DNA of 62,107 nt, the filler included. It is 9 parts of 9 records of this genome, joined end to end, with 100 filler letters (N's around TTAATTAATTAA, not from the genome) between each part and the next. Parts side by side here need not be neighbours in the genome. Positions count along the whole stretch, not along the records: positions 49,042 to 54,803 come from SRR31156797_38071; 8 more parts are not named here. One strand, written 5' to 3'. Below are positions 4,237 through 58,338 of this stretch, in pieces. Each line of letters opens with the position of its first letter. The first letter of the stretch is position 1. The notes under the pieces are model-generated. The model was given only the letters and a program-made list of their open reading frames with translations. It had not been told where the DNA came from and did no database searches. The translations under genes and the position numbers were made by a program.

Positions 4237-5004
4237 TCAGGACCAGATATAGCTGAGAACCTCTTCTCTCAGTCTCACGAACTCGGGGAGGGACTTCAGC
4301 TCCCGGCTGTCCCTGTCCATGTACTCCGTACTGAAGGGCGTATCCACCTTCTGGAGGATCTGTCCCGGCAGTTCGGACATCACGTAGACCGAGGTCGAAA
4401 GGTATATGGCCTCTTCCACGCTGTGGGTGATCAGGATGACCGTCTTGTGGGTATCCCTCCAGATCTTGAGCAGCTCCTCCTGCATATGCTCCCGGGTGAG
4501 AACGTCCAGGGCGCCGAAGGGCTCGTCCATCAGGAGGATCTCGGGATCGTTGGCCAGGATGCGCGCGATGGCCACCCTCTGCCTCATCCCGCCCGACAGT
4601 TCGTAGCAGTGCATGTGACCGAAGTCGGAGAGCTTCACCCTTTCCAGATTCTCCCTGACGATGTCCCTTCTTTTTCTCTTCTCCACCCCGTTCACCTTGA
4701 GGCCGAAGGCGACGTTCTGCTCTATGTTGAGCCAGGGATAGAGGGCGGGCTTCTGAAACACCACCCCCCTGTTTCTGCTCGGACCTTTCAAGGGGCCCTC
4801 TCTGTCAAAGATCTCCCCTCTCGTGGGCGGAAGGAAACCGCCCATCACGTTCAGAAGGGTGGACTTCCCGCAGCCCGAGGGACCGACGATGCTTATAAAA
4901 TCGCCCTTTCCCACGGTCATGGATACATCCTTGACCGCCGTGAGCAGTCCTTTCTGAGTATTGAAATCGACGGAGATGTCCTTCAGTTCAAGCAGATTAT
5001 CCAA
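4237..5004 (-). CDS. ABC transporter ATP-binding subunit, TauB/SsuB/NitT family
   Basis: Walker A GPSGCGKST, signature LSGGMRQR, Walker B LLMDEPFGALD, H-loop ITHSVEEA. Confidence 0.9.
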   Translation of the reverse strand: MDNLLELKDISVDFNTQKGLLTAVKDVSMTVGKGDFISIVGPSGCGKSTLLNVMGGFLPPTRGEIFDREGPLKGPSRNRGVVFQKPALYPWLNIEQNVAFGLKVNGVEKRKRRDIVRENLERVKLSDFGHMHCYELSGGMRQRVAIARILANDPEILLMDEPFGALDVLTREHMQEELLKIWRDTHKTVILITHSVEEAIYLSTSVYVMSELPGQILQKVDTPFSTEYMDRDSRELKSLPEFVRLREEVLSYIWS

Positions 5005-5007
5005 GTC

Positions 5008-6033
5008 TTATTGCTCCAGAGCCTGTTGTATGTACTCGGGGTGCAGGGCCTCTTTGAAGACCTCCACGTCCGGCGCCGACTTGATCGTCTTCTGCTCCAC
5101 CAGGAAGTCCGCCGTAGCCTTCAAAACGGAGGCCAGGTCGCCGATGGCTCCCCGGGTGCCCATGAAACGGGATTCCAGCTGCTCTTCGCCGCTGAGGAGG
5201 ACGAGGCTGTTCATCTGCCTGAGGGCTTCCTCAACGGGGATATCGAACTGACGGCTGACCGCTTCGGCCGCCTTTGTCTCATCGCTTCTGTAGAGTTCAA
5301 CGGCCCTGATTTCCGCAGCCAGGTACTGGACGACCAGCTCGGGGTAGTCCTTGGCAAAGCCCTTTCTGGCGACGGTGATATCACCGGTCAGGTATCCCGC
5401 TTCGGCAAGCCTGCGGGAGTAGATCAGAACCTCTCCGCCCGACTCCAGCATCTTGGCCAGGGTGGGTTCCCAGATAAAGCTTCCGTCCACGTCTCCCCTG
5501 TGCCAGGCGGCCAGGGCGTCGGGGGGCTGCATATCGAATATCTGAACATCCTCGGGGTTCACCCCTTCCAGCTCCAGAGCCGCCAGCAGATGATAGTGGG
5601 TGGTGGCTCCGTAGGGCACGGCTATCTTCTTGCCCGCCAGGTCCCGGACCGATTTGATGCCCGCGTCCTTCTTCACCACAAGCCCTTCGTTGTCGCCGAT
5701 GATATCGTGGATCCAGATGACGTCGAAGGGGACCGAGTTGGCGATGCCCGCGGCGATGCCGCTGCTTCCGGACAGACCGATGTCGATGCTGCCGGCGGCC
5801 AGGCCCGTGTTGAGTTCGGAACCCGAGTTCACCTGCACCCATTCCACCGGGACGCCCGCGGCTTCCTCGAACCAGTTGAAATCCTTGGAGATGATCTGGC
5901 CGTTGGGGATGGCCTGATAACCGATGACGATCTTCCCGGGCAGTCCGTCGGTCTCACCCTGTCCGGCTGCGGAAACAGCCGCGATGGAGATGCTGAACAA
6001 CACCGTCAGGAAAAGCACAATTCTCTTTGTCAT
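5008..6033 (-). CDS. Taurine/sulfonate-type ABC substrate-binding protein (TauA-like)
   Basis: Signal peptide, IGYQAIPN, DLAGKKIAVPYGATTHYHLL and AAWHRGDVDGSFIWEP, all typical of TauA. Confidence 0.82.
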   Translation of the reverse strand: MTKRIVLFLTVLFSISIAAVSAAGQGETDGLPGKIVIGYQAIPNGQIISKDFNWFEEAAGVPVEWVQVNSGSELNTGLAAGSIDIGLSGSSGIAAGIANSVPFDVIWIHDIIGDNEGLVVKKDAGIKSVRDLAGKKIAVPYGATTHYHLLAALELEGVNPEDVQIFDMQPPDALAAWHRGDVDGSFIWEPTLAKMLESGGEVLIYSRRLAEAGYLTGDITVARKGFAKDYPELVVQYLAAEIRAVELYRSDETKAAEAVSRQFDIPVEEALRQMNSLVLLSGEEQLESRFMGTRGAIGDLASVLKATADFLVEQKTIKSAPDVEVFKEALHPEYIQQALEQ

Positions 6034-8278: not shown

Positions 8279-8378
8279 NNNNNNNNNNNNNNNNNNNNNN
8301 NNNNNNNNNNNNNNNNNNNNNNTTAATTAATTAANNNNNNNNNNNNNNNNNNNNNNNNNNNNNNNNNNNNNNNNNNNN
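8279..8378. other. Artificial contig linker
   Basis: 44 N + TTAATTAATTAA (stops in all six frames) + 44 N. Confidence 0.99.
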
Positions 8379-8830: not shown

Positions 8831-11082
8831 CACTTCTTTTGTCGGCGTGTTACCTTTCCAATTGAGAAAAAGAGGAGATAAATAAAGAGAATTCCCCCGA
8901 TCCCGGCGGCAATGAAGGCGGGATTATGCCCCTCGACAATTTGATAGAAGAGGGTGGCAATAGACCAGCCGAGAACCGTCAGATATATCGCCTGCAGAAT
9001 CCCGTAGCCGACGCCCATCTGCCGGACGGAAGCGGCAAAGGCAGCCACACAGGGAAAGTAGATCAGGACGAAGAGAAGATAGGCGTAGGCCGAAGCGGGG
9101 GTAAAATTGAGTCTTAAATTCCGGAATATACCCTCATTCTCTTCAGAACCCGCACCCTCGGTATCTCCGGCAAAACCAAAGACCCCGACCAGCCCGGCGG
9201 GAATGGAGGCAAAGGCCTCGACAATGCCTCGGCCGAAGGAGAACTCCTCGGTCTCATCTGTATTCCTGGCCGCCTCATCCTGACCATAGAGGACAGAGAG
9301 GGTTCCTACAATCGACTCCTTGGCCAGAACACCGGTAAAGAGTCCCACCGTGGCTGGCCAGTTCTCTTTTTCGATCCCCATAGGTTTGAATATGGGGGTC
9401 ACCTTCTGCCCGGCCACGGATAGGAGAGCCTTTTCGCTGTTTTCATTCCCCATGGTTCCATCGGTCCCCATGGAGGAGAAAAACCCCAGGACAAAAACAG
9501 AAAAAACGATGATCTTTCCCGCCCGCAGGATGAAAGCTTTCAGTCGGATCCAGGTATGCAGGAGGATATGGTGAAACCGGGGCGAATGGTAACGGGGCAA
9601 TTCCATGATAAGATGGGAGGGCTCTCCTTTGAAGAGCGTTCCCTTTACCAGAAAACCGGTTATCACCGCAAGAACAATTCCAATCAGGTAGAGAGAAAAG
9701 ACAATCCCGCCGCTCCGCCGTTCAAAAAAGGCGGCGGCAAAGAGGGCATACACCGGAAGCCGGGCCCCGCAGGACATAAGAGGGGTCATAAAGATCGTCA
9801 TCTTCCTGTCTTTTTCCGTATCCAGGGTCCGGGTGGCCAGGATGGCCGGGACGGTGCAGCCAAAACCAACAAGCATGGGAACAAAGGCTTTTCCCGGAAG
9901 CCCTAAAAAACCCATGAAATTGTCCATAACGTAGGCGGCCCGGGCCATATAACCCGAATCTTCCAGAATAGACATCATGAAAAACATAAAGAAAATAAAC
10001 GGTACAAAGGTTGCTACCGCCTGTATTCCCGAACCAAAGCCACCGGCCAGGATGACAACAAGCCAGTCCGGCGTATTAAGACCCGCCAGAAGGGCACCCA
10101 GACCATCGACAAAAATCGTTCCGAAAAGGATATCAAAAAAATCAGCGAAGGCACCACCCAGGTTGATTGTCACCCAGAAAACGACATACATTGCCGCCAG
10201 AAAGACGGGAATTCCAAGAAAACGGTGCATCGCTATTGCATCGATCCTGTCTGTCCGGGACCGCTTCTCTTTTTCGATCCGGATGACCTCTTTTCCGATG
10301 GAATTGGCCATTCCGAATTTGTAATCGGCAATCACCACATCAGGACTGTCTCCGAGGAGCGATTCTATCCTCTCCAGTGACTCCCGGTACTCTTCCAGGG
10401 GAAACTGATCATCGTTTTCCACCGTTGTCAGAACATCAGGATCCTCCTCCGCCAGCCTGACAGCCATCCAGCGGGGAGCAACTCCCAGCCGATCAGCCTC
10501 TTCCGTCAGGTAGGGACTCCATCGGGAAAAAAGGTCTTCCAGTTCATTGGGGTAGTGGATAAAAAGATCAGAGATCGGCGGTTCCTCCAGATGATTGGAA
10601 ATATGCCCCTTGATCCGTTCCACATCCTTCGGTTCAATCGCGCTGCCCCCGTAAACGGGCGCCTTCAGATGGGTCGTCAGATGGTTTTTATCAATCCGGA
10701 TCTTCCTTTTCTCCGCCAGGTCGGTCATATTAAGAAGAACAATGACAGGGATTCCCATCTCGATAATCTGGCTGGTCAGATAGAGATTCCGGGTCAGATT
10801 AGTGGCATCAAGAATATTAACAACGAGATCCGCCTCTTTGGTCAGGAGATAATCCCGGGCAGCACGCTCATCTTCGGAATTGGCGGAAAGGGAGTAGATT
10901 CCCGGAAGATCGACGACCTTGATCGAGGTCTCCCCATAGTCATAATGACCTTCTACCTTCTCTACTGTGACCCCCGGCCAGTTTCCTATTGTCTGATCGG
11001 AACCGGTCAAGGCATTAAAAAGTGTACTCTTACCACAGTTGGGATTGCCCGCCAGGGCGATTGTATATGTCTTATTATTCAT
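8830..11082 (-). CDS. feoB: Ferrous iron transport protein B
   Basis: GNPNCGKS, GNWPGVTVE, DLPGIYSL and NMTD G-motifs; gate motifs GFGCTVPA, MSCGARLPVY and YFPCVA. Confidence 0.96.
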   Translation of the reverse strand: MNNKTYTIALAGNPNCGKSTLFNALTGSDQTIGNWPGVTVEKVEGHYDYGETSIKVVDLPGIYSLSANSEDERAARDYLLTKEADLVVNILDATNLTRNLYLTSQIIEMGIPVIVLLNMTDLAEKRKIRIDKNHLTTHLKAPVYGGSAIEPKDVERIKGHISNHLEEPPISDLFIHYPNELEDLFSRWSPYLTEEADRLGVAPRWMAVRLAEEDPDVLTTVENDDQFPLEEYRESLERIESLLGDSPDVVIADYKFGMANSIGKEVIRIEKEKRSRTDRIDAIAMHRFLGIPVFLAAMYVVFWVTINLGGAFADFFDILFGTIFVDGLGALLAGLNTPDWLVVILAGGFGSGIQAVATFVPFIFFMFFMMSILEDSGYMARAAYVMDNFMGFLGLPGKAFVPMLVGFGCTVPAILATRTLDTEKDRKMTIFMTPLMSCGARLPVYALFAAAFFERRSGGIVFSLYLIGIVLAVITGFLVKGTLFKGEPSHLIMELPRYHSPRFHHILLHTWIRLKAFILRAGKIIVFSVFVLGFFSSMGTDGTMGNENSEKALLSVAGQKVTPIFKPMGIEKENWPATVGLFTGVLAKESIVGTLSVLYGQDEAARNTDETEEFSFGRGIVEAFASIPAGLVGVFGFAGDTEGAGSEENEGIFRNLRLNFTPASAYAYLLFVLIYFPCVAAFAASVRQMGVGYGILQAIYLTVLGWSIATLFYQIVEGHNPAFIAAGIGGILFIYLLFFSIGKVTRRQKK

Positions 11083-14144: not shown

Positions 14145-14244
14145 NNNNNNNNNNNNNNNNNNNNNNNNNNNNNNNNNNNNNNNNNNNNTTAATTAATTAA
14201 NNNNNNNNNNNNNNNNNNNNNNNNNNNNNNNNNNNNNNNNNNNN
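14145..14244. other. Artificial contig linker
   Basis: 44 N + TTAATTAATTAA + 44 N. Confidence 0.99.
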
Positions 14245-19878: not shown

Positions 19879-19978
19879 NNNNNNNNNNNNNNNNNNNNNN
19901 NNNNNNNNNNNNNNNNNNNNNNTTAATTAATTAANNNNNNNNNNNNNNNNNNNNNNNNNNNNNNNNNNNNNNNNNNNN
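19879..19978. other. Artificial contig linker
   Basis: 44 N + TTAATTAATTAA + 44 N. Confidence 0.99.
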
Positions 19979-26388: not shown

Positions 26389-26488
26389 NNNNNNNNNNNN
26401 NNNNNNNNNNNNNNNNNNNNNNNNNNNNNNNNTTAATTAATTAANNNNNNNNNNNNNNNNNNNNNNNNNNNNNNNNNNNNNNNNNNNN
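26389..26488. other. Artificial contig linker
   Basis: 44 N + TTAATTAATTAA + 44 N. Confidence 0.99.
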
Positions 26489-28831: not shown

Positions 28832-30631
28832 TTAACTATTATCTTTAATTGAAAATAATTTAATTTTATTTTCTTTACCTCGAATCTTTGTTTCTCCGAG
28901 GTACTCCAAATCATGATTATCTAATAAACTTGCTACTTCTTCACTAAACACAAGAGGTCTGCCCACTTCTTTAGTCAGAGATTCTAATCTAGAAGCAGTA
29001 TTAACTGTATCAGAGATCACCGTACTTTCTATTCTTTCATTTTCTCCAATTATTCCCAGCATCGTTTTACCCCGATGTATTCCAATTCCAATTGTAAAAT
29101 CAATTTCATTATTATTCTCCAAACTTGAAATCATTTCCAAAGCCGCATTCACTGCATCTTCAGCCTTTACAGGAAATAAAGCCATTACTGCATCTCCTAT
29201 ATATTTATCAATAAATCCGTTATTTTTTCTAATAATTGGACCCACGACAGCTAAATATTTATTTAATTTATCAAATATCTCCTCCGGGCTTAAATTTTCG
29301 CTAATAGAAGTAAATGAACGAATATCAGCAAACAATATAGTAATCTCTTCTTCCTTTTGATCTCCAAGTCGAATTTCTGTTATAGATTCTTTCGATAGAA
29401 AATTTAAAAACTCTTTTGGAACAAATTTTTCGAACATAATATTTTGCTCAATGATTAATGCAGCCTGTCTATTAAATGTAAGTAAAGGAATTAAACATAA
29501 AAAAAAGAAAAATAATGCAAAACCTATATTCAGAGATGTATCTGCAATTAACTCTCCGAATATATCTTCAAATTGTAAAAAATAGGTCACAGCAATTGAT
29601 ATAAATGCGTATCTAAAATATTGAGCAGGAAACTTCTTTTTAACTTTTATAGTCAAATGAAACCAAATAAAAATATACTCTATTGCAGGATAAAAAAATG
29701 ATATAAATTCACGTGTATCAATAAACTGACCTGTAAAAGTAAAAATAATATTTTGAATCAAAATTAATAAATGAAAAGCAATAAATATATGAAAGTACTT
29801 TCTCCATGAATCAGAAAAATAACTAATATAAAACATAATCAGGATAATTGATAGTAAATCAAATGCAAATATCTCAATCAATTCTTTGCTCAGAGAAGAG
29901 ATTGGAAAAAATGTAACTAGTATATCTGTTGATAAAGCGTGTGAAACTCCTAGTATTACCGCAAATATCGAAAACCACAATAAATAGATTATCTTTTTCT
30001 TTCTATTAAATAGATAAATTAAAATACCTGTAACTCCTATTAAAAATATAATAAAGGCTATTAGAAAGTCACTGGTTTCAGCATGAAAAGTTTGCAAGAT
30101 GAATCTATCCTTATTATTAAGCAAATCCTCACTGTTTGATATATAAATCTCATGTTCATTATAAAGCGTTAATCCCAATTTCAATAATATCTGATCGCCA
30201 GATTTTATTTTATCCAAATAAATAAAAACATATCCTATTTTATTATTTCTTTTTTCCATCGAATAATTTTGCTTTATACCATTTATATAACACTCCAGAC
30301 TATGCCCATGAAGTTTGAGTATAAGATACTTATTATTATCAGAATCATTAAGCTCTTCTATATCAGGATAAGATATTCGCAGCCACATATACTCATGGTC
30401 AAAATAATCTGAATAATCATTGTCTTCTTCTAACTCCCACTCTATATCATTTATTATATTTTCAAAATTCTCAAACGCTGCTTTATTCAGATTAATTTCA
30501 TCAAAAGTTATCAGGTAATCTTCTCTTGTTAAAAGGTAAGCATCTAAGTCATCATCAAATTCAATCGGATAAATTTTTACTATAAAGTTTCCCAGAATAA
30601 AAAATAGCATAATAATATGTATTTTTTTCAT
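28832..30631 (-). CDS. Membrane-bound class III adenylate/guanylate cyclase (extracellular domain + ~7 TM + cyclase)
   Basis: LFADIRSFT, IDKYIGDAVMALF, GIGIHRG, TVISDTVNTASRLE and IRGK. Confidence 0.92.
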   Translation of the reverse strand: MKKIHIIMLFFILGNFIVKIYPIEFDDDLDAYLLTREDYLITFDEINLNKAAFENFENIINDIEWELEEDNDYSDYFDHEYMWLRISYPDIEELNDSDNNKYLILKLHGHSLECYINGIKQNYSMEKRNNKIGYVFIYLDKIKSGDQILLKLGLTLYNEHEIYISNSEDLLNNKDRFILQTFHAETSDFLIAFIIFLIGVTGILIYLFNRKKKIIYLLWFSIFAVILGVSHALSTDILVTFFPISSLSKELIEIFAFDLLSIILIMFYISYFSDSWRKYFHIFIAFHLLILIQNIIFTFTGQFIDTREFISFFYPAIEYIFIWFHLTIKVKKKFPAQYFRYAFISIAVTYFLQFEDIFGELIADTSLNIGFALFFFFLCLIPLLTFNRQAALIIEQNIMFEKFVPKEFLNFLSKESITEIRLGDQKEEEITILFADIRSFTSISENLSPEEIFDKLNKYLAVVGPIIRKNNGFIDKYIGDAVMALFPVKAEDAVNAALEMISSLENNNEIDFTIGIGIHRGKTMLGIIGENERIESTVISDTVNTASRLESLTKEVGRPLVFSEEVASLLDNHDLEYLGETKIRGKENKIKLFSIKDNS

Positions 30632-32705: not shown

Positions 32706-32805
32706 NNNNNNNNNNNNNNNNNNNNNNNNNNNNNNNNNNNNNNNNNNNNTTAATTAATTAANNNNNNNNNNNNNNNNNNNNNNNNNNNNNNNNNNNNNNN
32801 NNNNN
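32706..32805. other. Artificial contig linker
   Basis: 44 N + TTAATTAATTAA + 44 N. Confidence 0.99.
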
Positions 32806-41648: not shown

Positions 41649-41748
41649 NNNNNNNNNNNNNNNNNNNNNNNNNNNNNNNNNNNNNNNNNNNNTTAATTAA
41701 TTAANNNNNNNNNNNNNNNNNNNNNNNNNNNNNNNNNNNNNNNNNNNN
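41649..41748. other. Artificial contig linker
   Basis: 44 N + TTAATTAATTAA + 44 N. Confidence 0.99.
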
Positions 41749-48941: not shown

Positions 48942-49041
48942 NNNNNNNNNNNNNNNNNNNNNNNNNNNNNNNNNNNNNNNNNNNNTTAATTAATTAANNN
49001 NNNNNNNNNNNNNNNNNNNNNNNNNNNNNNNNNNNNNNNNN
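48942..49041. other. Artificial contig linker
   Basis: 44 N + TTAATTAATTAA + 44 N. Confidence 0.99.
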
Positions 49042-50362
49042 CAAATCCATAATCAAAACACATGGGGCCCAGAATATCCTGAACATAAGACTTGTATCGA
49101 AAATCAATTCCATTATTAGCCATGATATCGGCTCCTGCACGTGAAGCTTCCAGTAAAAATGCATTACCGTAATCGAAGAAATAGGTTCCCTGCATGGTGT
49201 GTTTGTTGATAGCTGCAACATGACGTCTGAGTGATTGTTGCACCTTTTCTTTAAATAACTCAGGTTCTTCACGAATCAAGCGGTTTGATTCTTCAAAACT
49301 AACATCAACGGGGTAATAACCCCCGGTCCATGGAATGTGCAACGATGTTTGGTCGGAACCCACATGAACAAAAATATCTTCTTTGTGAAAATGTTCCCAC
49401 ACATCAACCACATTTCCTATAAAGGCAATAGAAACTACTTCTTTGTTTTTTTGTGCCTTTTTAACGCTGGAAATAAGTTCATCCATTGAGTCAATAAGAA
49501 CATCCACCCAACCTTGGTCGTATCTTTTTTTTGCGGCGTTTGGATTAACCTCTGCACATACAGATATACACCCGGCAATGTTTCCGGCCTTGGGCTGAGC
49601 ACCGCTCATCCCACCTAATCCGGCAGTTAAAAATATTTTACCAGCTGTTTTCTCGTCTTTTTGCAGAATTTTTCTGAAAGCGTTCATTACCGTAATGGTG
49701 GTTCCGTGTACAATGCCTTGAGGGCCAATGTACATAAACGAACCGGCAGTCATTTGTCCATATTGAGAAACACCAAGGGCATTAAATCTCTCCCAGTCAT
49801 CAGGTTTCGAATAATTCGGAATTACCATGCCATTGGTAACCACCACTCGGGGAGCCGACTTTGAAGATGGAAACAGTCCCATTGGGTGGCCCGAATATAA
49901 ATGCAAAGTTTGCTCATCTGACATGATGGCGAGGTATTGCATCGTAAGTAAATACTGGGCCCAGTTTTGAAAGACAGCGCCATTTCCTCCATAAGTAATC
50001 AGCTCTTCAGGGTGCTGTGCTACTGCCGGATCCAGGTTGTTCTGAATCATTAGCATAATGGCTGCTGCTTTCTTGCTTATTGCAGGATATTTTTCAATCG
50101 GACGGGCAAATATCTCATATTCCGGTTTAAACCGGTACATGTAAATACGGCCATATTCTTTTAACTCATGAGCAAATTCCTGGGCCAATTCTGCGTGCCA
50201 ATCTTCAGGGAAATAACGCAAAGCATTTCGAATGGCTAGTTGTTTTTCGTCAATACTTAAAATGTCTTTTCGTTTTGGAGCATGATTGGCCCGTTGATTA
50301 TATGCCTTTTTTATAGGTAGTTCAGATGGAATACCTTGCAATATTTGTTCCTGGAATGTCAT
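49042..50362 (-). CDS. hutU: Urocanate hydratase, long type (3'-truncated)
   Basis: NNLDPAVAQHP, YGQMTAGSFMYIGPQGIVHGT, GLGGMSGAQP, SDQTSLH and FDYGN. Confidence 0.95.
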
Positions 50363-50399
50363 TGTTTTAGCCTTTTGGATTTTCAGATGAATAGTTTTG

Positions 50400-51890
50400 T
50401 TAACGTACGATAAATGCTCTGTTTTTTACAAGCTCTACCATATTGCTTATGTCTTCTTTTATCAGGCGGTCATCCTCCAGTTTTTCTACCTTTTCTCGAA
50501 TAATAGCAAAGTTTTGCTCAATTACCGGCGAAAATTTATTTGGACGGCGGAATTCCATTGCCTGAGCAGCGTACATTAGCTCAATGGCAAATATCTTTTC
50601 GAGGTTGCTCAGTATCTGGTTGAATTTTCTGCCAGAAATACTACCCATTGAAACATGGTCTTCCTGTCCCAAAGAAGTGGGAACACTATCAGCAGAAGGA
50701 GGAAAACACAACGATTTGTTTTCAGTTACCAAAGCTGCAGTAGTATACTGTGGAATCATAAAACCAGAATTCAATCCTCCGTGAGCAGTTAGTAACCGAG
50801 GTAGCCCATATTTGCCTTCCAGCATTAAATAACATCTTCTGTCTGAAATATTTCCCATTTCAGCAGCAGCTATAGAGCCATAGTCAAGGGCCATTGCCAA
50901 AGGTTGTCCGTGGAAATTCCCACCGGAAATAGCTAACTCATCGGTTAAAACAATTGGATTATCCGTAACCGAGTTCATTTCAATCTCGGCCATCTCATTT
51001 AAATGAATCCAGGCATTCCGGCTTGCTCCGTGTACCTGAGGCATACAACGAATGGAGTAGGGGTCCTGTATACGTTGGCAATGTTCATGTACTTTTATGT
51101 TTTCTGAATCGGTTAAAAGAAAACGGATACGTTCGGCAACCCTTAAGTTGCCTTTAAACGGGCGTATGGTATGTATCTCTTCCCGGAAAGGTGAGGCACT
51201 TCCCATAAAGCCTTCAAGACTCATGGTTCCTGCTACGTCGGCCAAATCAAGCAAATATTCCATCCGGTATAAACCCAAAATGGTGTGGGCCAGAATAAAT
51301 TGGGTTCCGTTTATCAGACCTAGACCTTCCTTGGCCTTTAGTTTTAAAGGCTTAAGATTTACCTTCTTGTAGTAATCTTTTGTTGAAACAATTTTGTTGT
51401 CGATCCACAGTTCTCCTTCTCCTAAAAGGGGTAAAAACAAGTGAGACAAAGGTGCCAGGTCTCCGGATGCTCCAACCGAACCTTGTTCAGGAACTACAGG
51501 CAATACATCGCTGTTAATAAAATGCAGAATACGTTCAATTACTTCCAAACGCACTCCTGAAAAGCCTTGGCTTAATGCGTGTACTTTGCAAATTAACATT
51601 AACTTTGAGAGCTCATTATCAATGGGTTTTCCAACACCAACTGCATGAGTAATCAGCAAATTCTCCTGTAGTTTACAGGTTTCTTCCGGTGTTATCTGGG
51701 TGTCGCACAAGGGACCAAATCCTGTGTTTATACCATAAACCGGTTCGCTGCCCTTAGCCATTATTTCTACTTTTTGTCGACAACAGTTGATCTTCTCAAT
51801 AGCTTCATCAACAAGCGTAGCATACAATTCGTTTTTGGCTATGGCCATAGCCTTGTTAACTGTTAAATGGTCTATCCCGTATTTAAACAT
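50400..51890 (-). CDS. hutH: Histidine ammonia-lyase
   Basis: VYGINTGFG, MIO-forming GASGDLAPL, INGTQ, QDPYSIRC, GGNFH and QEDHVSMG. Confidence 0.96.
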   Translation of the reverse strand: MFKYGIDHLTVNKAMAIAKNELYATLVDEAIEKINCCRQKVEIMAKGSEPVYGINTGFGPLCDTQITPEETCKLQENLLITHAVGVGKPIDNELSKLMLICKVHALSQGFSGVRLEVIERILHFINSDVLPVVPEQGSVGASGDLAPLSHLFLPLLGEGELWIDNKIVSTKDYYKKVNLKPLKLKAKEGLGLINGTQFILAHTILGLYRMEYLLDLADVAGTMSLEGFMGSASPFREEIHTIRPFKGNLRVAERIRFLLTDSENIKVHEHCQRIQDPYSIRCMPQVHGASRNAWIHLNEMAEIEMNSVTDNPIVLTDELAISGGNFHGQPLAMALDYGSIAAAEMGNISDRRCYLMLEGKYGLPRLLTAHGGLNSGFMIPQYTTAALVTENKSLCFPPSADSVPTSLGQEDHVSMGSISGRKFNQILSNLEKIFAIELMYAAQAMEFRRPNKFSPVIEQNFAIIREKVEKLEDDRLIKEDISNMVELVKNRAFIVR

Positions 51891-51922
51891 GACTTTTTTT
51901 ATGCGCATTACTCATATATATG

Positions 51923-51990
51923 CAAAGTTACGAGTTGTTTTGATGCGGAATAAGACCATTTATTTGTATATTTGATAACCGTGAGTAATC
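51923..51990. promoter_or_regulatory. Divergent hutH / lysR control region
   Basis: TAACTTTG on the minus strand (51923-51930) and TATATTTG on the plus strand (51967-51974) are -7 elements. LysR-type box GATAAC-N5-GTAATC at 51974-51990. Confidence 0.55.
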
Positions 51991-52865
51991 AAATAGGGTT
52001 TCGTCATTACAAATATTTCCTGGCTGTTGCAGAAGATTTACATTTTCGAAAAGCTGCCGAACGTCTATTTATTTCCCAACCCGGTCTTAGCAGGCAGATC
52101 AAACAAATGGAAGAAGAATTAGGGATAAAACTGTTCAGGCGACACAATAGGAAGGTTGAATTAACTGAAGCAGGAGAATACCTTAAACAGGAGCTGAAAA
52201 ATAATTTTAGACGACTTGACGATGTAGTTGCTCATGCCAGGTTATTGAACGATGGTGTGAACGGGCATCTGAACCTGGGATTTGTCGGTTCTGCAATGCA
52301 AAATATTATTCCGGATTTGCTTGTAGAGTTCCGGGATTCGCATCCAAAAGTTTTGTTTAGCCTGAATGAAATGGATAACAAGCAACAGTTAAAAGCTTTG
52401 CTCAACCATGAGATTGATGTCGGTTTTGTACGGCTTGAAAGGGTGCCACGTGGAATGCAGATTAGAGCCTTGCATGAAGATACTTTTTCTCTGGTGTTAC
52501 CAAAAAATCACCTGTTAAATGCATCGAATTTTAAAAACCTGGCTCAGCTAAAAGACGAACCTTTTATTCTTTTCGATTCTTCTTATAGCGAATCATATTA
52601 CGAAAAAGTAATGCAAATTTTCGATGATAGTGGATTTGCACCCATTGTTTCACATTCAACCGTTAATGCCAGTTCTATTTATCGTTTAGTAGAAAATCAT
52701 TTGGGTGTTTCTATTGTGCCAACATCTTTAAAGTATGGTTTTGATTTGGATATTAAGTTTATTGAACTTAAAAATATTCCGCAACGCACTACATTACGAA
52801 TGATTTGGAACTCGGAGAATACCAATCCGATTTTAGAGCATTTTATCCAAACATCCTTTTCGTAA
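51981..52865 (+). CDS. LysR-family transcriptional regulator
   Basis: YFLAVAEDLHFRKAAERLFISQPGLSRQIKQMEEELG HTH; divergent from hutH. Confidence 0.93.
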   Translation: MSNQIGFRHYKYFLAVAEDLHFRKAAERLFISQPGLSRQIKQMEEELGIKLFRRHNRKVELTEAGEYLKQELKNNFRRLDDVVAHARLLNDGVNGHLNLGFVGSAMQNIIPDLLVEFRDSHPKVLFSLNEMDNKQQLKALLNHEIDVGFVRLERVPRGMQIRALHEDTFSLVLPKNHLLNASNFKNLAQLKDEPFILFDSSYSESYYEKVMQIFDDSGFAPIVSHSTVNASSIYRLVENHLGVSIVPTSLKYGFDLDIKFIELKNIPQRTTLRMIWNSENTNPILEHFIQTSFS

Positions 52866-52898
52866 GGAAAACGTAATCTCTTGTTTTTTGTTGGTTGA

Positions 52899-54803
52899 TT
52901 AATTACTCCCGACTACTTCCTTTATTTCTGCAGGATCGATAAGATTTGGGATTGGATCGCTAAAATCAACTTCAATTCTTAACGCCCGTAAACCTGATGC
53001 TCCCTTTAAATCCTCCAGCTCCAACTCTTCAATATTGGATTTTATAAATCCCTGTGCAATCATGTAATCGAGGTATTTTTTGTATTCCCTTATTTCATTA
53101 GCATGAGAATAAATAATAGCTATTTTACCTACTTGAGTTACGCGTTCGTTGGTGCCGTTAATCAAAGCCTTATCAATACGTTTCTTGGTGATTTCGTAAC
53201 GAATGTTGTAAGCACCTGCTACATCAAACTTTTTTTCATCTTGCCTAAAAGTAATACTTAAAGGATTTGAATGCACGAGGATTAATTGCGTAATATCAAG
53301 TTTTGTTGGAAGTTGTGGTTGCAGTTCCCTTATTTTACGTGCCACTTTTACCTTAACAAGCAGTTGCCATAAACGAATGTTTTTCAGATAGATTTCATTG
53401 TACTCCAGGTCTCTAACCAGAGATTGGCCGATGTAGGCATTGTATTCCAGTCCATCTGTGCGGTATTTTTCAAAATAATGAGGAAATACATCCTGTGCTT
53501 TAGTTTGTTCCTGATCAATTATCTCTCCAACCTTATCGTTTATAATTGTTAGGCTATTTTCAAAATCTTTACGCTTTTTGTAAAGTACATGTAACTCCGG
53601 ATCTAAGGTATCAAAATAGGCCTGAACAATTTTTTCCAATTCAGCATAGCGCAATTTTAATAACATTAACAGCGGATCAACATCTCGTTTCAAAAACTCC
53701 AGAATTACCACTTCATCACCAGCTTTTAAGCCACTCTTCACGGTTTTAATGTGTTCGCTTATTTTATACGACACATCGTCGAGCAGAGGCATGTCTTTGA
53801 TTGATTTACCTTGCTCTAGAATCTTTTTGGCGTGTTCCAGTTGTTCGGTTAAGTCGGCCTGAATTCCTTTGTTGCGTTCAATAGATGAACCTCGAATATC
53901 GGAAGCTCCATAAATTGGTACAACATCGGGAAAAACAATAGGTTCTACAGCTACGCTTTCGCTTTCGGGATTATTTTTGGCCTGGTGGGCAACAGCTTCT
54001 CGGAAACGCCATTCAACAGTGGGATGTATGGCTGTAAATTCTTCCTGTATTATGGCACTAATCCGGGTTTGCCATTCTTCTTTCGAGCGCTGAAGAGCCA
54101 GTGCAAAAGTTGGGAAAACCTCGTGTAATCTTTTTACGTGCATTATACTGATCGATTCCGGTTTTTTACACGCAAATTCCAGCATGCCAACAGGAGTTTC
54201 ATCAATCAGTAAAGGAACAATTGCGTGGCTGCGAATGCCTTTTTCGAGAAATGCTTTGGCCACATGGTCTTCTTTAATTTGCTGTATGTCGGTGTTCTGG
54301 ATAATCCTGTTTTCCATAAAAGCCTTTTCATAAAAAGTTCCCCTGTATTCGGTACACTTTAACTTTGTACGTGGAATTATGGTTCTCCAAACCAGTTCTT
54401 CATTTAACGAAGCATCCATGTCGGGTGTAACAGCCATGCCAAATTCAAGATCGGGATTTTCAAAAAGAGCACGCATACGTTTTGTAATCTTTTCGAAACC
54501 TGCGTCTGTTACCACCGTGTTTTTATCCAGTAAATCAGACTTGAGTTGCGAAATGACATAATCCTGTGTAACATTAATGTAAGAGAAGGGGAGAAAGCCA
54601 CTGAACTCAAAATGCTCAAGAGGTATTTTTTCATTCCATAAATTAAGGTCTTCCGTATTGTCGAAAAGGGTGGTTATATCCTCTTTCGTAAGTTTTGGTC
54701 GTTTTTTTAAGACTTTTACTTTTAAATATTTGGTTGAAAAATTTTTCTTGAAATAGCAAATTGAATTATCTTTTTGATCAGTTACACGAAATGTAAATGG
54801 CAA
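52899..54803 (-). CDS. GAF-domain protein with a divergent class III cyclase-like C-terminal domain (5'-truncated)
   Basis: GAF: GIRSHAIVPL...VGMLE. Then TAIHPTVEWRF, YGASDIRGSS, FEKYRTDG, FDVAGAYN and DLKG. The cyclase assignment is my inference. Confidence 0.75.
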   Translation of the reverse strand: MPFTFRVTDQKDNSICYFKKNFSTKYLKVKVLKKRPKLTKEDITTLFDNTEDLNLWNEKIPLEHFEFSGFLPFSYINVTQDYVISQLKSDLLDKNTVVTDAGFEKITKRMRALFENPDLEFGMAVTPDMDASLNEELVWRTIIPRTKLKCTEYRGTFYEKAFMENRIIQNTDIQQIKEDHVAKAFLEKGIRSHAIVPLLIDETPVGMLEFACKKPESISIMHVKRLHEVFPTFALALQRSKEEWQTRISAIIQEEFTAIHPTVEWRFREAVAHQAKNNPESESVAVEPIVFPDVVPIYGASDIRGSSIERNKGIQADLTEQLEHAKKILEQGKSIKDMPLLDDVSYKISEHIKTVKSGLKAGDEVVILEFLKRDVDPLLMLLKLRYAELEKIVQAYFDTLDPELHVLYKKRKDFENSLTIINDKVGEIIDQEQTKAQDVFPHYFEKYRTDGLEYNAYIGQSLVRDLEYNEIYLKNIRLWQLLVKVKVARKIRELQPQLPTKLDITQLILVHSNPLSITFRQDEKKFDVAGAYNIRYEITKKRIDKALINGTNERVTQVGKIAIIYSHANEIREYKKYLDYMIAQGFIKSNIEELELEDLKGASGLRALRIEVDFSDPIPNLIDPAEIKEVVGSN

Positions 54804-54903
54804 NNNNNNNNNNNNNNNNNNNNNNNNNNNNNNNNNNNNNNNNNNNNTTAATTAATTAANNNNNNNNNNNNNNNNNNNNNNNNNNNNNNNNNNNNNNNNN
54901 NNN
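54804..54903. other. Artificial contig linker
   Basis: 44 N + TTAATTAATTAA + 44 N. Confidence 0.99.
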
Positions 54904-55267
54904 ATCTCATTTCGGTGCTCTGCTGAAAATGGCTTTTTTTAAGATATCTCTCTCCATTTCAGCATCTTTTAGTTTCTTTTCAAATTCATGAATTCTCTTT
55001 TCCGGCTCTGTTAACGATTCCTTACCACGACCAGGGAATGCCCCTTCATATTTTGAACGATGTTCTCTTCGCCAACGATAAAGAAGGTCTTTGCCAATAC
55101 CAAGATTTTCTGCACCTCTTTTACTGTGCGCCTATGGGGCATCTGTTAATTGAACTACGTTACGCTTGAAACCTGAAGCATATTTTCTTCTTTGAACACT
55201 CATGTTTCCCTCCTGCCACCCCTTTAAATATTAGCTTAACTGAGCGTCCACTTTTAAAGCAAGATCA
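54904..55267 (-). mobile_element. IS3-family insertion sequence, left end (remainder beyond the contig end)
   Basis: IRL-like TGATCTTGCTTTAAAAGTGGAC starting at 55267; RBS AGGAGG; orfA; A7G slippery site; ATGA overlap into orfB. Confidence 0.8.
54907..55203 (-). pseudogene. IS3 transposase OrfA pseudogene
   Basis: MSVQRRKYASGFKRNVVQLTDAP*...AENLGIGKDLLYRWRRE...AFPGRGK...EMERDILKKAIFSRAPK. An in-frame TAG lies within a short compensated frameshift. Confidence 0.8.
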
Positions 55268-55386: not shown

Positions 55387-55842
55387 TTAAGACGTTATAT
55401 CTATGGAAGGCGTCACGTCACTCTTTTGGAGCAATTCCAGCACCTGCTCCACCATATCCTCCTCGCTATTTTGAGCGTAGGCTGAAATAGCCTCTTCAGA
55501 TGAAACAGAAGGTGGTGGTGGCATGGCGGGTGCAAGCCCTCCCTCACCTGCAGCAGATGAAGGTGGAGTGAACCCATAGCTGTTCAACATCTTAAGTAAT
55601 TCTTCTCCGCTTAACTCACTATTTCCATCGACGTCGAAATTGTTGAGAATAGTTTCAGAATCAATTTCCGTATTTGTAGTTTCTTTAATACCTCCTAATA
55701 GGGTTTCTAACTCAGTTCCGCTCACAAGTCCGTCACCGTCAGTATCTGATAGTTGAAAAACATCCTTCTCCGGCGGTGGAGTTTGCTTTTGCGTCGCCTG
55801 CATGGTCATAGTCGACATAGCACTATTTATACTGCTGATCAT
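55387..55842 (-). CDS. EF-hand domain protein with Pro-rich linkers
   Basis: DTDGDGLVSGTEL and DVDGNSELSGEEL loops; MPPPPS; ATG at 55842 follows GGAG. Confidence 0.78.
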   Translation of the reverse strand: MISSINSAMSTMTMQATQKQTPPPEKDVFQLSDTDGDGLVSGTELETLLGGIKETTNTEIDSETILNNFDVDGNSELSGEELLKMLNSYGFTPPSSAAGEGGLAPAMPPPPSVSSEEAISAYAQNSEEDMVEQVLELLQKSDVTPSIDITS

Positions 55843-55972
55843 ATATTTTCTCCAAAACGTATTTATCCTGAAATGAGACAAAAAAACCGACTATCCCGAT
55901 TTCACTCATTGTTGCCCTTCCATCGAGATGCACATTTTTTTTATGCTCTAAAAATATTCTCAGACAAGAATG

Positions 55973-56193: not shown

Positions 56194-57660
56194 GTGAAAC
56201 TCAAGATCCGACACAAGCTATTTTCAGCTCTGCTGTTAACTAGTCTGATGGTTGCAGCGGCACTCTTTCTGTTCCTCCAGTGGAATTTTGATCGTGGTTT
56301 TCTCAATTACGTCAAAAAACAGGAAACCAAAAAAATTGACCTTTTGGCAACACTCCTCAGTAAGGAGTATGGCACTCATGGTGACTGGCAATTCATGGTT
56401 AACAACTATGAACTTTGGATCCATCTGCACGCAATAATAGCGGAAAAACCACTCCCTTTTGACTTGCCCCAACCGGGCCGAAATAATCGTCCCGGCGGTC
56501 CACCCTTCCATGATAAACACATCCCTCCCCCTCAAGGTCATGAACGACCGCCAAAAGGTGACTCTTTCATAGGGCCTCGATTACTTCTTCTCAACGTTGA
56601 TAAACAAAAAATTATCGGTGCCCAGGGGCAGATTCAAGATAAGAAGAAAATGGCATTTCACCCGATCAGCTACCAAGCCGAAACAGTCGGCTACCTGGGA
56701 TTGGTGCCAGCGGAAGAACTTTCAGAGGCTGGTGATCTACTTTTTGTAGAGGAACAAACATTGTCTTTTGCAATGGTAACGGCTGTGATGGTTATCTTTT
56801 CTTTTCTGGTATCTTTTCTCGTTACCAGTCATCTTATACGACCGATCAACGAACTCATTGAAGGTACAAGAAAACTCATTGGAGGCTGGTTTTCAACGCG
56901 TATCCCCATAACAACGAGAGATGAGCTTGGCACCTTGTCTGAACATTTTAATAACCTCGCCAACACCTTGGAAGAAAATGAAAAAGCCCGACAGTTATGG
57001 GTGGCAGACATTTCCCATGAACTCCGCACACCGCTGGCTATTCTCCAAGGTGAAGTTGAAGCTATGCAAGATGGCATTCAAGTAACAGATTCGCAGAGTC
57101 TCGCTGCGCTGCATGGTGAAATTCTACATTTAGGACGGCTGGTGAGTGACCTCTATGAACTTTCGATGACGGATATCGGGGCACTCAATTATAAGAAAAT
57201 CAAAGTTGATACCTGTCAAATATTGCTGGAAACTGTAGACCTTTTTAAACAACGGTACGCAAAAAAAGGTATAGATCTGAAGGTGCTGCCTCAAGAACTT
57301 CCTTCTATCATCCTGATTGCCGATCCAGACCGCTTGCAGCAGCTTTTTACCAATATATTGGAAAACAGCCTGCGCTACACATCCGCACCAGGGAAAGTCG
57401 AGATACATGTTGCATGGACAGCTAAAAACATCTCTTTTCAGTGTATGGACAGTGAACCGAGTCTTTTGCCGGAACAGCTCCCCCACTTATTTGATCGGTT
57501 ATTTCGTGCAGATGCCTCCCGGAACCGTAAATCGGGCGGTGCTGGCTTGGGAATGGCTATTTGTAAAAATATTATTGAGGCTCACCAAGGATATATAAGT
57601 GCTGAAAAATCGCCCCTCGGCGGACTTCAGCTTACTATGAGATTACCTCGAACCACATGA
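56194..57660 (+). CDS. BaeS-like sensor histidine kinase
   Basis: Two TM segments, HAMP (DELGTL), H-box ADISHELRTPL, N-box NILENSLRY and G-box GGAGLGMAI. Confidence 0.9.
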   Translation: MKLKIRHKLFSALLLTSLMVAAALFLFLQWNFDRGFLNYVKKQETKKIDLLATLLSKEYGTHGDWQFMVNNYELWIHLHAIIAEKPLPFDLPQPGRNNRPGGPPFHDKHIPPPQGHERPPKGDSFIGPRLLLLNVDKQKIIGAQGQIQDKKKMAFHPISYQAETVGYLGLVPAEELSEAGDLLFVEEQTLSFAMVTAVMVIFSFLVSFLVTSHLIRPINELIEGTRKLIGGWFSTRIPITTRDELGTLSEHFNNLANTLEENEKARQLWVADISHELRTPLAILQGEVEAMQDGIQVTDSQSLAALHGEILHLGRLVSDLYELSMTDIGALNYKKIKVDTCQILLETVDLFKQRYAKKGIDLKVLPQELPSIILIADPDRLQQLFTNILENSLRYTSAPGKVEIHVAWTAKNISFQCMDSEPSLLPEQLPHLFDRLFRADASRNRKSGGAGLGMAICKNIIEAHQGYISAEKSPLGGLQLTMRLPRTT

Positions 57661-58338
57661 ATGGAATACTTTATGAAACAGATGGTACTTGTTGTTGAAG
57701 ATGAACCTCGGCTTGCAGAAATCCATCGAAAATATCTAGAGCAGGCAGGCCATGAAACGCACATTCTGGATGATGGAAATGCAGTTACGACCTGGGTCAG
57801 AAAAAACGATCCTGCCCTTATTCTGCTTGACCTTATGCTGCCGGGATGCGACGGACTCGATATTTGCAAAGAAATCCGTCAGTTTTCCAACATCCCAATC
57901 ATTATGGTAACCGCACGTATAGAAGAGATAGACAGACTCCTTGGCCTGGAGTTGGGAGCTGATGACTATATTTGCAAACCCTTTAGCCCGCGTGAAGTTG
58001 TGGCAAGGGTTAAGGCTGTACTGCGTCGTAATTCTCCAACCCTGAAGAGTGAAGAATTATTAGTCCTCGACCAAGAATGTTACACGGCAAGGGTTAAGGG
58101 GGAAAAACTCGATTTAACCGCGGTAGAATTTCGCCTGCTGAATATTCTTGCCGCCAGACCTGGGCAAATTTTCTCCCGTGATCAATTGATGGACCGTATT
58201 TATACAGACCAACGCGTTGTGTATGACCGGACGATTGACAGCCATATAAAAAATCTACGTCGCAAAATAGCAGCTATTGACCCGAACCTGGAAATTATTC
58301 AGTCTGTTTATGGTGTTGGGTATAAATATGAATTTTGA
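57661..58338 (+). CDS. BaeR-like OmpR-family response regulator (start may be 57673)
   Basis: VVEDE, LLDLMLP, GADDYICKPFSPREVVARV, RTIDSHIKNLRRK and SVYGVGY. Confidence 0.92.
   Translation: MEYFMKQMVLVVEDEPRLAEIHRKYLEQAGHETHILDDGNAVTTWVRKNDPALILLDLMLPGCDGLDICKEIRQFSNIPIIMVTARIEEIDRLLGLELGADDYICKPFSPREVVARVKAVLRRNSPTLKSEELLVLDQECYTARVKGEKLDLTAVEFRLLNILAARPGQIFSRDQLMDRIYTDQRVVYDRTIDSHIKNLRRKIAAIDPNLEIIQSVYGVGYKYEF

Follow-up and report, generated by a model that had tools for sequence, protein, structure and literature searches.

A predicted class III nucleotidyl-cyclase homology domain with a helical insert in a family of GAF-domain proteins from Bacteroidota and related phyla

The DNA analysed here, referred to throughout as the window (the whole stretch of 62,107 nucleotides, filler included), carries at 52899-54803, on the minus strand, a gene for a GAF-domain protein. 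The C-terminal part of this protein is our main subject, as an earlier note on the same DNA had read it as a GAF-regulated class III nucleotidyl-cyclase domain hidden from sequence profiles. The open reading frame (ORF) abuts a contig joint at its start and its residue 1 corresponds to residue 156 of a homologue, and hence it is incomplete, with about 155 N-terminal residues cut off. Residues 1-634 align with residues 156-789 of homologue P0011 (789 amino acids (aa); 69% identity), while the nearest homologue among the matches listed, P0001, is 81% identical, and homologue lengths are nearly all 780-820 aa. The lost N-terminus was not found elsewhere in the window. The parts of the gene, named according to the models described below, are as follows.

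52899-54803, minus strand: N-terminally truncated ORF, 634 codons and a stop; family members are about 790 aa, and identity to P0011 is 69%
54576-54803, minus strand: tail end of an N-terminal alpha/beta domain, ORF residues 1-76, placed by the P0011 offset and the model of the L001 homologue
54072-54575, minus strand: GAF domain, ORF residues ~77-244, placed by Pfam, the family profile and the homologue model
53943-54071, minus strand: helical linker with a conserved T-A-I-H-P-x-V-E-W-R-F motif, ORF residues 245-287 (model helices 2-11 and 17-33)
53847-53942, minus strand: predicted cyclase-homology domain, part 1, ORF residues 288-319, with beta1 ending at D302, the D-I-R-x-S-S turn and the start of alpha1
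53529-53846, minus strand: predicted helical-bundle insert, ORF residues ~320-425 (306-439 if the lengthened alpha1 and alpha2 are counted whole)
52956-53528, minus strand: predicted cyclase-homology domain, part 2, ORF residues 426-616, with the beta2-beta3 hairpin, beta4, beta5, alpha4 and beta6-beta8; D450 at 53454-53456, D527 at 53223-53225 and N533 at 53205-53207, the last two within F-D-V-x-G-A-Y-N
52902-52955, minus strand: poorly conserved C-terminal tail, ORF residues 617-634, with a predicted local distance difference test score (pLDDT) of 74-83
54804-54903, no strand: contig joint of N44 + TTAATTAATTAA + N44, which removes the first ~155 codons of the gene

The family layout is an N-terminal domain, a GAF domain, a helical linker and an insert-bearing cyclase-homology domain. 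The GAF assignment is supported by both sequence profile and fold. Pfam GAF_2 matches ORF residues 157-238 (E 2.6e-5, under the gathering score), and the family profile finds the GAF chain 3p01_A in the PDB (E 2.8e-6). Residues 1-405 of a homologue, L001, were also modelled; L001, the closest homologue with a name, comes from a Sunxiuqinia metagenome-assembled genome (MAG), and its C-terminal part is 70% identical to that of the window protein. With a pLDDT of 94, this model matches GAF structures over its residues 232-405, the best being 3k2n_B (Z 13.8, 160 residues aligned). A structure search with this model gave no fold match for the first ~230 residues, GAF matches having filled the list. 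The modelled GAF domain ends in a long helix that continues into two helices ahead of the cyclase domain. W265 and F267 of the linker are invariant in the family alignment, and in the models the linker resembles a signalling helix or transducer element of the kind found ahead of cyclase domains. The structural matches to sGC, AC9 and a phytochrome-cyclase extend back to model residues 1-15, taking in the pre-domain helices of those proteins. The GAF domain, long helix and superposing pre-domain helices would together fit a sensor/signalling-helix/cyclase design.

The last 390 residues (52902-54071, minus strand) were modelled using AlphaFold2 without templates, from an alignment with 145 homologues (alignment A1, 146 sequences). 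Of these homologues, 18 of 120 were taken from one listing and 127 of 150 from another, leaving out short fragments and the last 13 identifiers, and their identities to the window protein are 41-86%. The best model has a pLDDT of 95.0 and a predicted template modelling (TM) score of 0.90, and the five models (pLDDT 93.8-95.0) are in agreement. In model numbering, the chain runs through two helices, a strand (46-60), five helices (62-195), a hairpin (199-204/208-214), a helix (226-253), three strands (259-265, 271-276 and 281-284), a helix (288-301), a strand (316-321), a helix (325-339) and two final strands (343-352 and 362-368). The predicted topology is that of the cyclase-homology fold (beta-alpha-alpha-beta-beta-alpha-beta-beta-alpha-beta-alpha-beta-beta) with extra helices after the first strand, the helices of the insert being 62-91, 95-113, 119-141, 143-154 and 166-195. 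The last ~330 residues are therefore predicted to form a class III nucleotidyl-cyclase homology domain in which the beta1-beta2 segment is expanded by a helical bundle of ~105-133 residues.

Structure searches with this model put class III cyclases on top. Using Foldseek against the PDB, ranks 1-50 were all class III cyclases (E 1.9e-5 to 5.9e-3, target-normalised TM score up to 0.66). When the Foldseek list was re-scored with VIA-align, the best 50 were again all class III cyclases (Z 10.4-12.2), led by Cya2 (2w01_D; Z 12.2, root-mean-square deviation 3.0 Å, 184 of 199 residues aligned). A search of 48,161 chains independent of Foldseek returned class III cyclases at all of ranks 1-11, among them the Pycsar cyclases 8jsz (uridylate; Z 11.3) and 8jsf (cytidylate; Z 10.1), and its remaining rows were generic helical bundles matching only residues ~60-170, which is the insert. 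The insert itself matches generic helical bundles only, with Z of 7.6-9.8. No GGDEF, Cas10 or polymerase palm structure was among the listed rows of the three structure searches, a distant relationship to these still being possible. When the C-terminal 390 residues were folded as a pair together with ATP and Mg, and without an alignment, the score was 0.01 (mark 0.32), which speaks neither for nor against dimerisation.

The putative active site is strongly conserved within the family. Thirteen residues are invariant in all 146 sequences of A1: D302, S306, R310, D317, D450, G451, Y457, G530, K540, R542, D544, K545 and R554. A more divergent alignment (A3) holds the window protein and 11 members at 33-41% identity, 12 sequences in total, with L089 dropped for an in-frame stop; in it the same residues are invariant in 12 of 12, along with D527 and N533. 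In the model, D302 lies at the C-terminal end of beta1 (strand 46-60) and D450 in the beta2-beta3 turn (205-207, between strands 199-204 and 208-214), and S306, R310 and D317 lie at the start of alpha1. By conservation and predicted position, D302 and D450 take the places of the two metal-binding Asp of the class III fold, where beta1 ends and in the beta2-beta3 hairpin respectively, and in a ferredoxin-like palm fold they would adjoin. In part 2, N533 is N in 139 and D in 7 of the A1 sequences, and R535, two residues further on, is Arg in 143. Helix alpha4 carries an invariant K-K-R-I-D-K, which includes K540, R542, D544 and K545. Position 527 is D in 125 of 146, the equivalence of positions 446 and 527 to the base-specifying pair of cyclases (Lys/Asp for ATP, Glu/Cys for GTP) being drawn from motif and topology only. 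F-D-V-x-G-A-Y-N may correspond to Y-D-I-W-G-N-T-V-N of the mammalian C2 domain minus one residue, which we take as a lead only. In the search of 48,161 chains, model residue 39 falls on residue 377 of the AC5 C1 chain (1cs4_A), and if beta1 is ungapped this would place D302 on D396 of AC5 C1. The metal-binding Asp of AC5 C1 are given as D396 and D440, and the transition-state Arg of AC2 C2 as R1029, in a published source (PMC9223806).

Sequence comparison, in contrast to the structure searches, does not recover a cyclase. A Pfam scan of the GAF protein gave GAF_2 only and no PF00211 at E<=1, so that membership of PF00211 by sequence profile is lacking, and scans with NCBIfam, PADLOC and PHROGs gave nothing meaningful. 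BLASTP against the class III cyclase encoded elsewhere in the window (28832-30631) returned unrelated scraps only (best E 0.29). A profile of the 146 family members found no cyclase in the PDB, its matches being GAF chains and one unrelated tail-fibre chain (E 0.53). Against 121 cyclase domains, hhalign gave a probability of 1.3% when the insert was kept and 2.5% after its removal, which was done in two versions (model residues 64-195 and 76-181). A forced global alignment to cyclases scored 5.4 against a null of 3.4 +/- 2.5, a score reached by 14 of 60 block shuffles. Taken as sequence alone, the motif resemblance is no better than chance. Since removing the insert restores no profile signal, the insert is not the sole reason that profiles miss the domain, and by these comparisons the core of the cyclase-homology domain has itself diverged beyond profile reach.

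These results bear on what the earlier note had proposed. Its seven motif strings all occur in the ORF in the order given, the two Asp codons are at 53898-53900 (D302) and 53454-53456 (D450), and the spacing is as described, with 148 residues between D302 and D450 vs 44 between D436 and D480 of the window cyclase. The separating segment, described as mostly helical, consists of five helices (62-195) in the model, and the structural check it called for, AlphaFold followed by Foldseek, produced a predicted class III cyclase fold, with cyclases topping all three structure searches. The profile check with the insert removed came out negative at 2.5%, and with it went the idea that the insertion by itself hides the domain from hidden Markov models. 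The comparison cyclase is indeed bona fide (Pfam Guanylate_cyc, PF00211, E 2.5e-23), but it does not share a contig or, probably, an organism with the GAF protein, as it lies on its own contig of 30% GC content vs 39% for that of the GAF-protein gene. This gene (28832-30631, minus strand) encodes a canonical protein with 7TMR-DISM and class III cyclase domains, and its named relatives are mostly from Leptospiraceae/Spirochaetota and cyanobacteria, not Bacteroidota.

The family is large and reaches beyond Bacteroidota. A search with the C-terminal part matches 1127 representatives of clusters at 50% identity with E<=1e-3, of which 606 reach E<=1e-30, and at least 588 genomes have a relative (one genome per species scanned). 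Among the matches listed, the hosts are mostly Bacteroidota of several orders, Ignavibacteria and Rhodothermia, and some MAGs with a relative are labelled Rokubacteria/Methylomirabilota, Gamma-/Deltaproteobacteria, Poribacteria, Longimicrobiales or Binatia. Of 301 genomes sampled evenly from the phylum to which L001 belongs, 47 have the family gene, nearly always as a single copy. No longer fused forms of the C-terminal domain were found, which is weak evidence; a 1383-aa open frame in genome G039 was considered as a fusion and set aside, as it lies in high-GC DNA rich in spurious ORFs.

Family members carry the source names 'GAF domain-containing protein' or 'hypothetical protein', and no source name, Pfam or NCBIfam model examined labels the family a cyclase, a finding that the earlier note had said would remove the novelty. 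Our search of the literature on Bacteroidota cyclases, GAF proteins and PycTM/DUF5706 found no paper describing it. A preprint on F. johnsoniae RgzA was considered and rejected, as it concerns an unrelated GAF histidine kinase. The ESM Atlas, searched with the whole C-terminal part, returned no clusters other than those of the family's kind, and a search with the part after the insert gave nothing usable. In the matching clusters, 23-33% of members are labelled PF27174 'YeeD' (Pfam 38, precomputed); should Pfam 38 describe this entry as cyclase-like, the novelty of the present reading would be lower. No paper holding the accession PF27174 was found, and the sole relevant mention of 'YeeD' in the literature, a putative toxin-antitoxin pair of B. 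subtilis, was set aside.

Relatives of the gene have recurrent neighbours. The commonest, at 22 of 80 loci, encodes a ~400-aa protein that joins an HD domain to PycTM (PF18967, E 1.6e-35) and has no cyclic-nucleotide-binding domain by Pfam. The second commonest (15 of 80 loci) encodes a ~1230-aa Metallophos and Omp85 protein. Across the 301-genome sample, where 30 weaker matches of the HD-PycTM scan were not listed, a full-length, single-piece HD-PycTM protein occurs in 42 of the 47 genomes with the family vs 26 of the 254 without it, and three of the other five family genomes (G052, G201 and G260) have an HD-PycTM match in two pieces. Of the 47 genomes, 24 have the family gene and the HD-PycTM gene no more than 2 kb apart (20 pairs convergent, 4 on the same strand), and 7 more have them within 15 kb. 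At locus L085, a 402-aa ORF, the GAF-cyclase gene, the HD-PycTM gene (3-bp gap) and the Metallophos-Omp85 gene (18-bp gap) follow one another on one strand. In Reichenbachiella (L009) the set also holds ppk1 and a propeller protein of SdiA-regulated type.

Several observations on individual loci can be added. In L009, the polyphosphate kinase 1 gene (4542-5984, minus strand) lies between the HD-PycTM and GAF-cyclase-like genes. In a Bacteroidales MAG (L005), the gene at 9199-10311 (plus strand), immediately downstream of the GAF-cyclase-like gene, encodes a 370-aa protein bearing a canonical Guanylate_cyc domain (E 1.2e-12), and genes for an SdiA-regulated propeller, a Metallophos-Omp85 protein and an HD-PycTM protein lie past it. 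Many sampled genomes (e.g. G039, G131, G179 and G087) encode stand-alone proteins of ~190-260 aa with the PycTM half only (query ~210-393) or the HD half only, and the two modules thus also occur split.

In view of its predicted fold and of the invariance of D302 and D450, the explanation that we favour, and consider probable, is that the domain is an active nucleotidyl cyclase gated by GAF. The reading of a GAF-regulated cyclase-type domain put forward in the earlier note is supported at the level of predicted fold and conserved site, and none of the outcomes that the note had listed as refuting it occurred. Under it, a ligand would bind at the GAF domain and the signal would pass through the helical linker to the cyclase domain, which, by analogy with other class III enzymes, would act as a dimer. 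D302 and D450 would hold two metal ions on the nucleoside triphosphate, and the D-I-R-x-S-S turn and N533 would position its triphosphate and ribose, such that the ribose 3'-OH could attack the alpha-phosphate to give a cyclic nucleotide and pyrophosphate. The basic residue at position 446 and D527 would fit adenine best. The Glu at the transition-state Arg position and the invariant K-K-R-I-D-K may indicate altered chemistry or regulation.

A number of points weigh against this reading and against the partnership with HD-PycTM. As no sequence method sees a cyclase, the case rests on the predicted structure, and the closeness of D302 and D450 is drawn from topology and alignment ranges. On helix alpha4, the N-x-x-x-R motif keeps its Asn, and the transition-state Arg position (N533 + 4) is Glu in 142 of the 146 sequences of A1. 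The proposed base-specifying Lys, position 446, is K in 107, R in 21, M in 6, N in 4, L in 3 and other residues in the remainder, and mostly R in the divergent set A3. L-E-D-L-K-G, which the earlier note had matched to E-T-K-I-R-G of the window cyclase, is present in the protein; its Lys, taken as the phosphate-binding Lys of the beta7-beta8 K-G-K, is not the family consensus, being Gln in 113 of 146. The expected invariance of catalytic residues is thus borne out for D302 and D450, is near-complete for N533, weaker for D527, and fails for Lys446 and the Arg. With regard to the partner genes, 20 of the 24 neighbouring pairs are convergent and hence not co-transcribed, and the association of the family with HD-PycTM across genomes (odds ratio 74, Fisher 9e-28) ignores shared ancestry. 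The genome of L001 has two HD-PycTM copies, one 396 kb away from the family gene and one on another contig, and in the window there is no HD-PycTM gene and no partner gene beside the GAF-protein gene.

The changed Arg and Lys positions keep two rival readings alive. The domain may be a palm-fold enzyme with another two-metal chemistry, such as making a linear or cyclic oligonucleotide, acting as a phosphohydrolase or serving a polyphosphate-tied reaction, rather than producing a 3',5'-cyclic mononucleotide. Such a reaction would accommodate the invariant K-K-R-I-D-K and the conserved Glu in place of the transition-state Arg, and the neighbours of relatives handle phosphate (the HD hydrolase, the Metallophos protein, and ppk1 in L009); in L005, where a canonical PF00211 cyclase lies directly downstream, the two enzymes could be non-redundant. 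However, no GGDEF, Cas10 or polymerase palm appears among the listed structure matches, and the best matches are all mononucleotide cyclases whose domains are covered near-completely, although fold alone fixes no reaction either way. We regard this reading as unlikely. The domain may instead be a pseudo-cyclase, a module for regulation or binding in which the fold and a nucleotide or metal site persist but no messenger is made, as in the non-catalytic half-sites of heterodimeric cyclases. The altered canonical positions (Arg to Glu, the K-G-K Lys to Gln, and the variable residue 446) and the want of a PF00211 sequence match would suit such a module, but pseudo-enzymes usually lose residues such as the metal-binding Asp, the Ser-Ser turn and the Asn, and here both Asp, the turn and the Asn are invariant or nearly so over 146 sequences, down to 33% identity, which makes this reading quite improbable.

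It is also conceivable that no cyclase domain is present, with a chance likeness of motifs compounded by an artefact of prediction. In favour of this, the motif matches are not significant as sequence, but the template-free model is of high confidence with five models in agreement, two independent structure searches put only cyclases on top with ~92% of the target domain aligned, and the order of the motifs is that of the secondary-structure elements in the model. Such a coincidence seems to us very remote.

Returning to an active GAF-gated cyclase, the partners found in relatives, HD-PycTM, Metallophos-Omp85 and sometimes ppk1, would make the GAF protein the signal generator of an envelope or phosphate circuit. 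With no PADLOC match, a single copy per genome and a conserved chromosomal setting, the partner genes suggest housekeeping rather than phage defence. We tentatively propose, as a possibility that we hold with low confidence, that bacteria of the FCB group (Bacteroidota and relatives) have an undescribed housekeeping nucleotide second-messenger circuit, in which the signal of the GAF-gated, insert-bearing cyclase, possibly non-canonical, is read or degraded by an inner-membrane HD-PycTM protein coupled to Metallophos-Omp85 and polyphosphate metabolism. If this were true, a Pycsar-type effector domain would have an everyday relative; the HD-PycTM linkage itself hints at housekeeping relatives of immune effector modules, and this protein, in which an HD hydrolase is joined to a membrane module of Pycsar type and whose gene is closely linked to the family, is a testable partner. 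Should the domain prove active, a catalytic function could be assigned to a large family (1127 clusters at 50% identity, and about one sixth of the genomes sampled from the phylum), and Bacteroidota and related phyla would have an unrecognised source of cyclic-nucleotide signalling. The case also illustrates how a textbook enzyme fold can escape every sequence profile through an insertion combined with general divergence.

The wider setting of the gene is that of a composite record. The window consists of nine contigs joined end to end by eight linkers of N44 + TTAATTAATTAA + N44, located as follows.

8279-8378, 14145-14244, 19879-19978, 26389-26488, 32706-32805, 41649-41748, 48942-49041 and 54804-54903, no strand: linkers between contigs

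The GC content of the contigs ranges from 30% to 58%, and the window is therefore a mixed metagenome record of several organisms, in which genes on separate contigs should not be taken for neighbours or assumed to share a genome. The contig of the GAF-protein gene (49042-54803, 39% GC) also encodes a LysR regulator, histidine ammonia-lyase and a truncated urocanase, so that this copy adjoins hut genes and a LysR gene. The 3' end of the urocanase gene (48986-50362, minus strand) is cut by a contig joint, and its listed ORF crosses the N-run and shows X residues. On the other side, at the extreme end of the next contig, lies a fragment of an IS3-type transposase orfA (54907-55203, minus strand; Pfam HTH_Tnp_1, E 9.9e-6) with an in-frame TAG at 55132-55134, a possible cause of the assembly break. 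On the last contig, a small EF-hand protein (55387-55881, minus strand) is encoded upstream of a HAMP histidine kinase and an OmpR-type response regulator (56194-58338, plus strand).

Among known systems, the Pycsar and Pucsar PycC enzymes (8JSZ, 8JSF and 7R65) have a cyclase fold that matches the family model with Z of 9.2-11.3, and a further link to Pycsar is that the neighbouring gene in relatives carries a PycTM domain (PF18967). Unlike in Pycsar, this neighbour joins an HD hydrolase to PycTM, and the family genes are single-copy, mostly convergent and located beside ppk1 and outer-membrane genes rather than in defence islands. PADLOC gave no match for the GAF protein, and the operon with a cyclic-nucleotide-binding effector in a defence context that marks Pycsar is absent. 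The class III cyclases (PF00211; Cya2 2W01, CyaB 3R5G, CyaC 1WC1, Rv1900c 1YBT and mammalian AC C1/C2 1CS4) share the entire predicted fold (Z 10.8-12.2, with 164-185 residues aligned over target chains of 167-201). Common to both are the Asp ending beta1, the Asp in the beta2-beta3 turn, the turn of small residues after the first Asp, the Asn at the start of helix alpha4, and an upstream sensor domain with a helical linker. The family differs from these enzymes in having no detected sequence similarity to them, a helical bundle of ~105-133 residues between beta1/alpha1 and alpha2/beta2, Glu for the transition-state Arg, Gln for the K-G-K Lys, and a longer helix alpha4 with the invariant K-K-R-I-D-K. 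The cyanobacterial cyclases CyaB1 and CyaB2 carry tandem cAMP-binding GAF domains N-terminal to a canonical PF00211 domain. In comparison, the family has a single GAF domain, an extra N-terminal domain of ~230 residues and a divergent, insert-bearing cyclase-homology domain, but both designs place a GAF sensor N-terminal to the cyclase domain.

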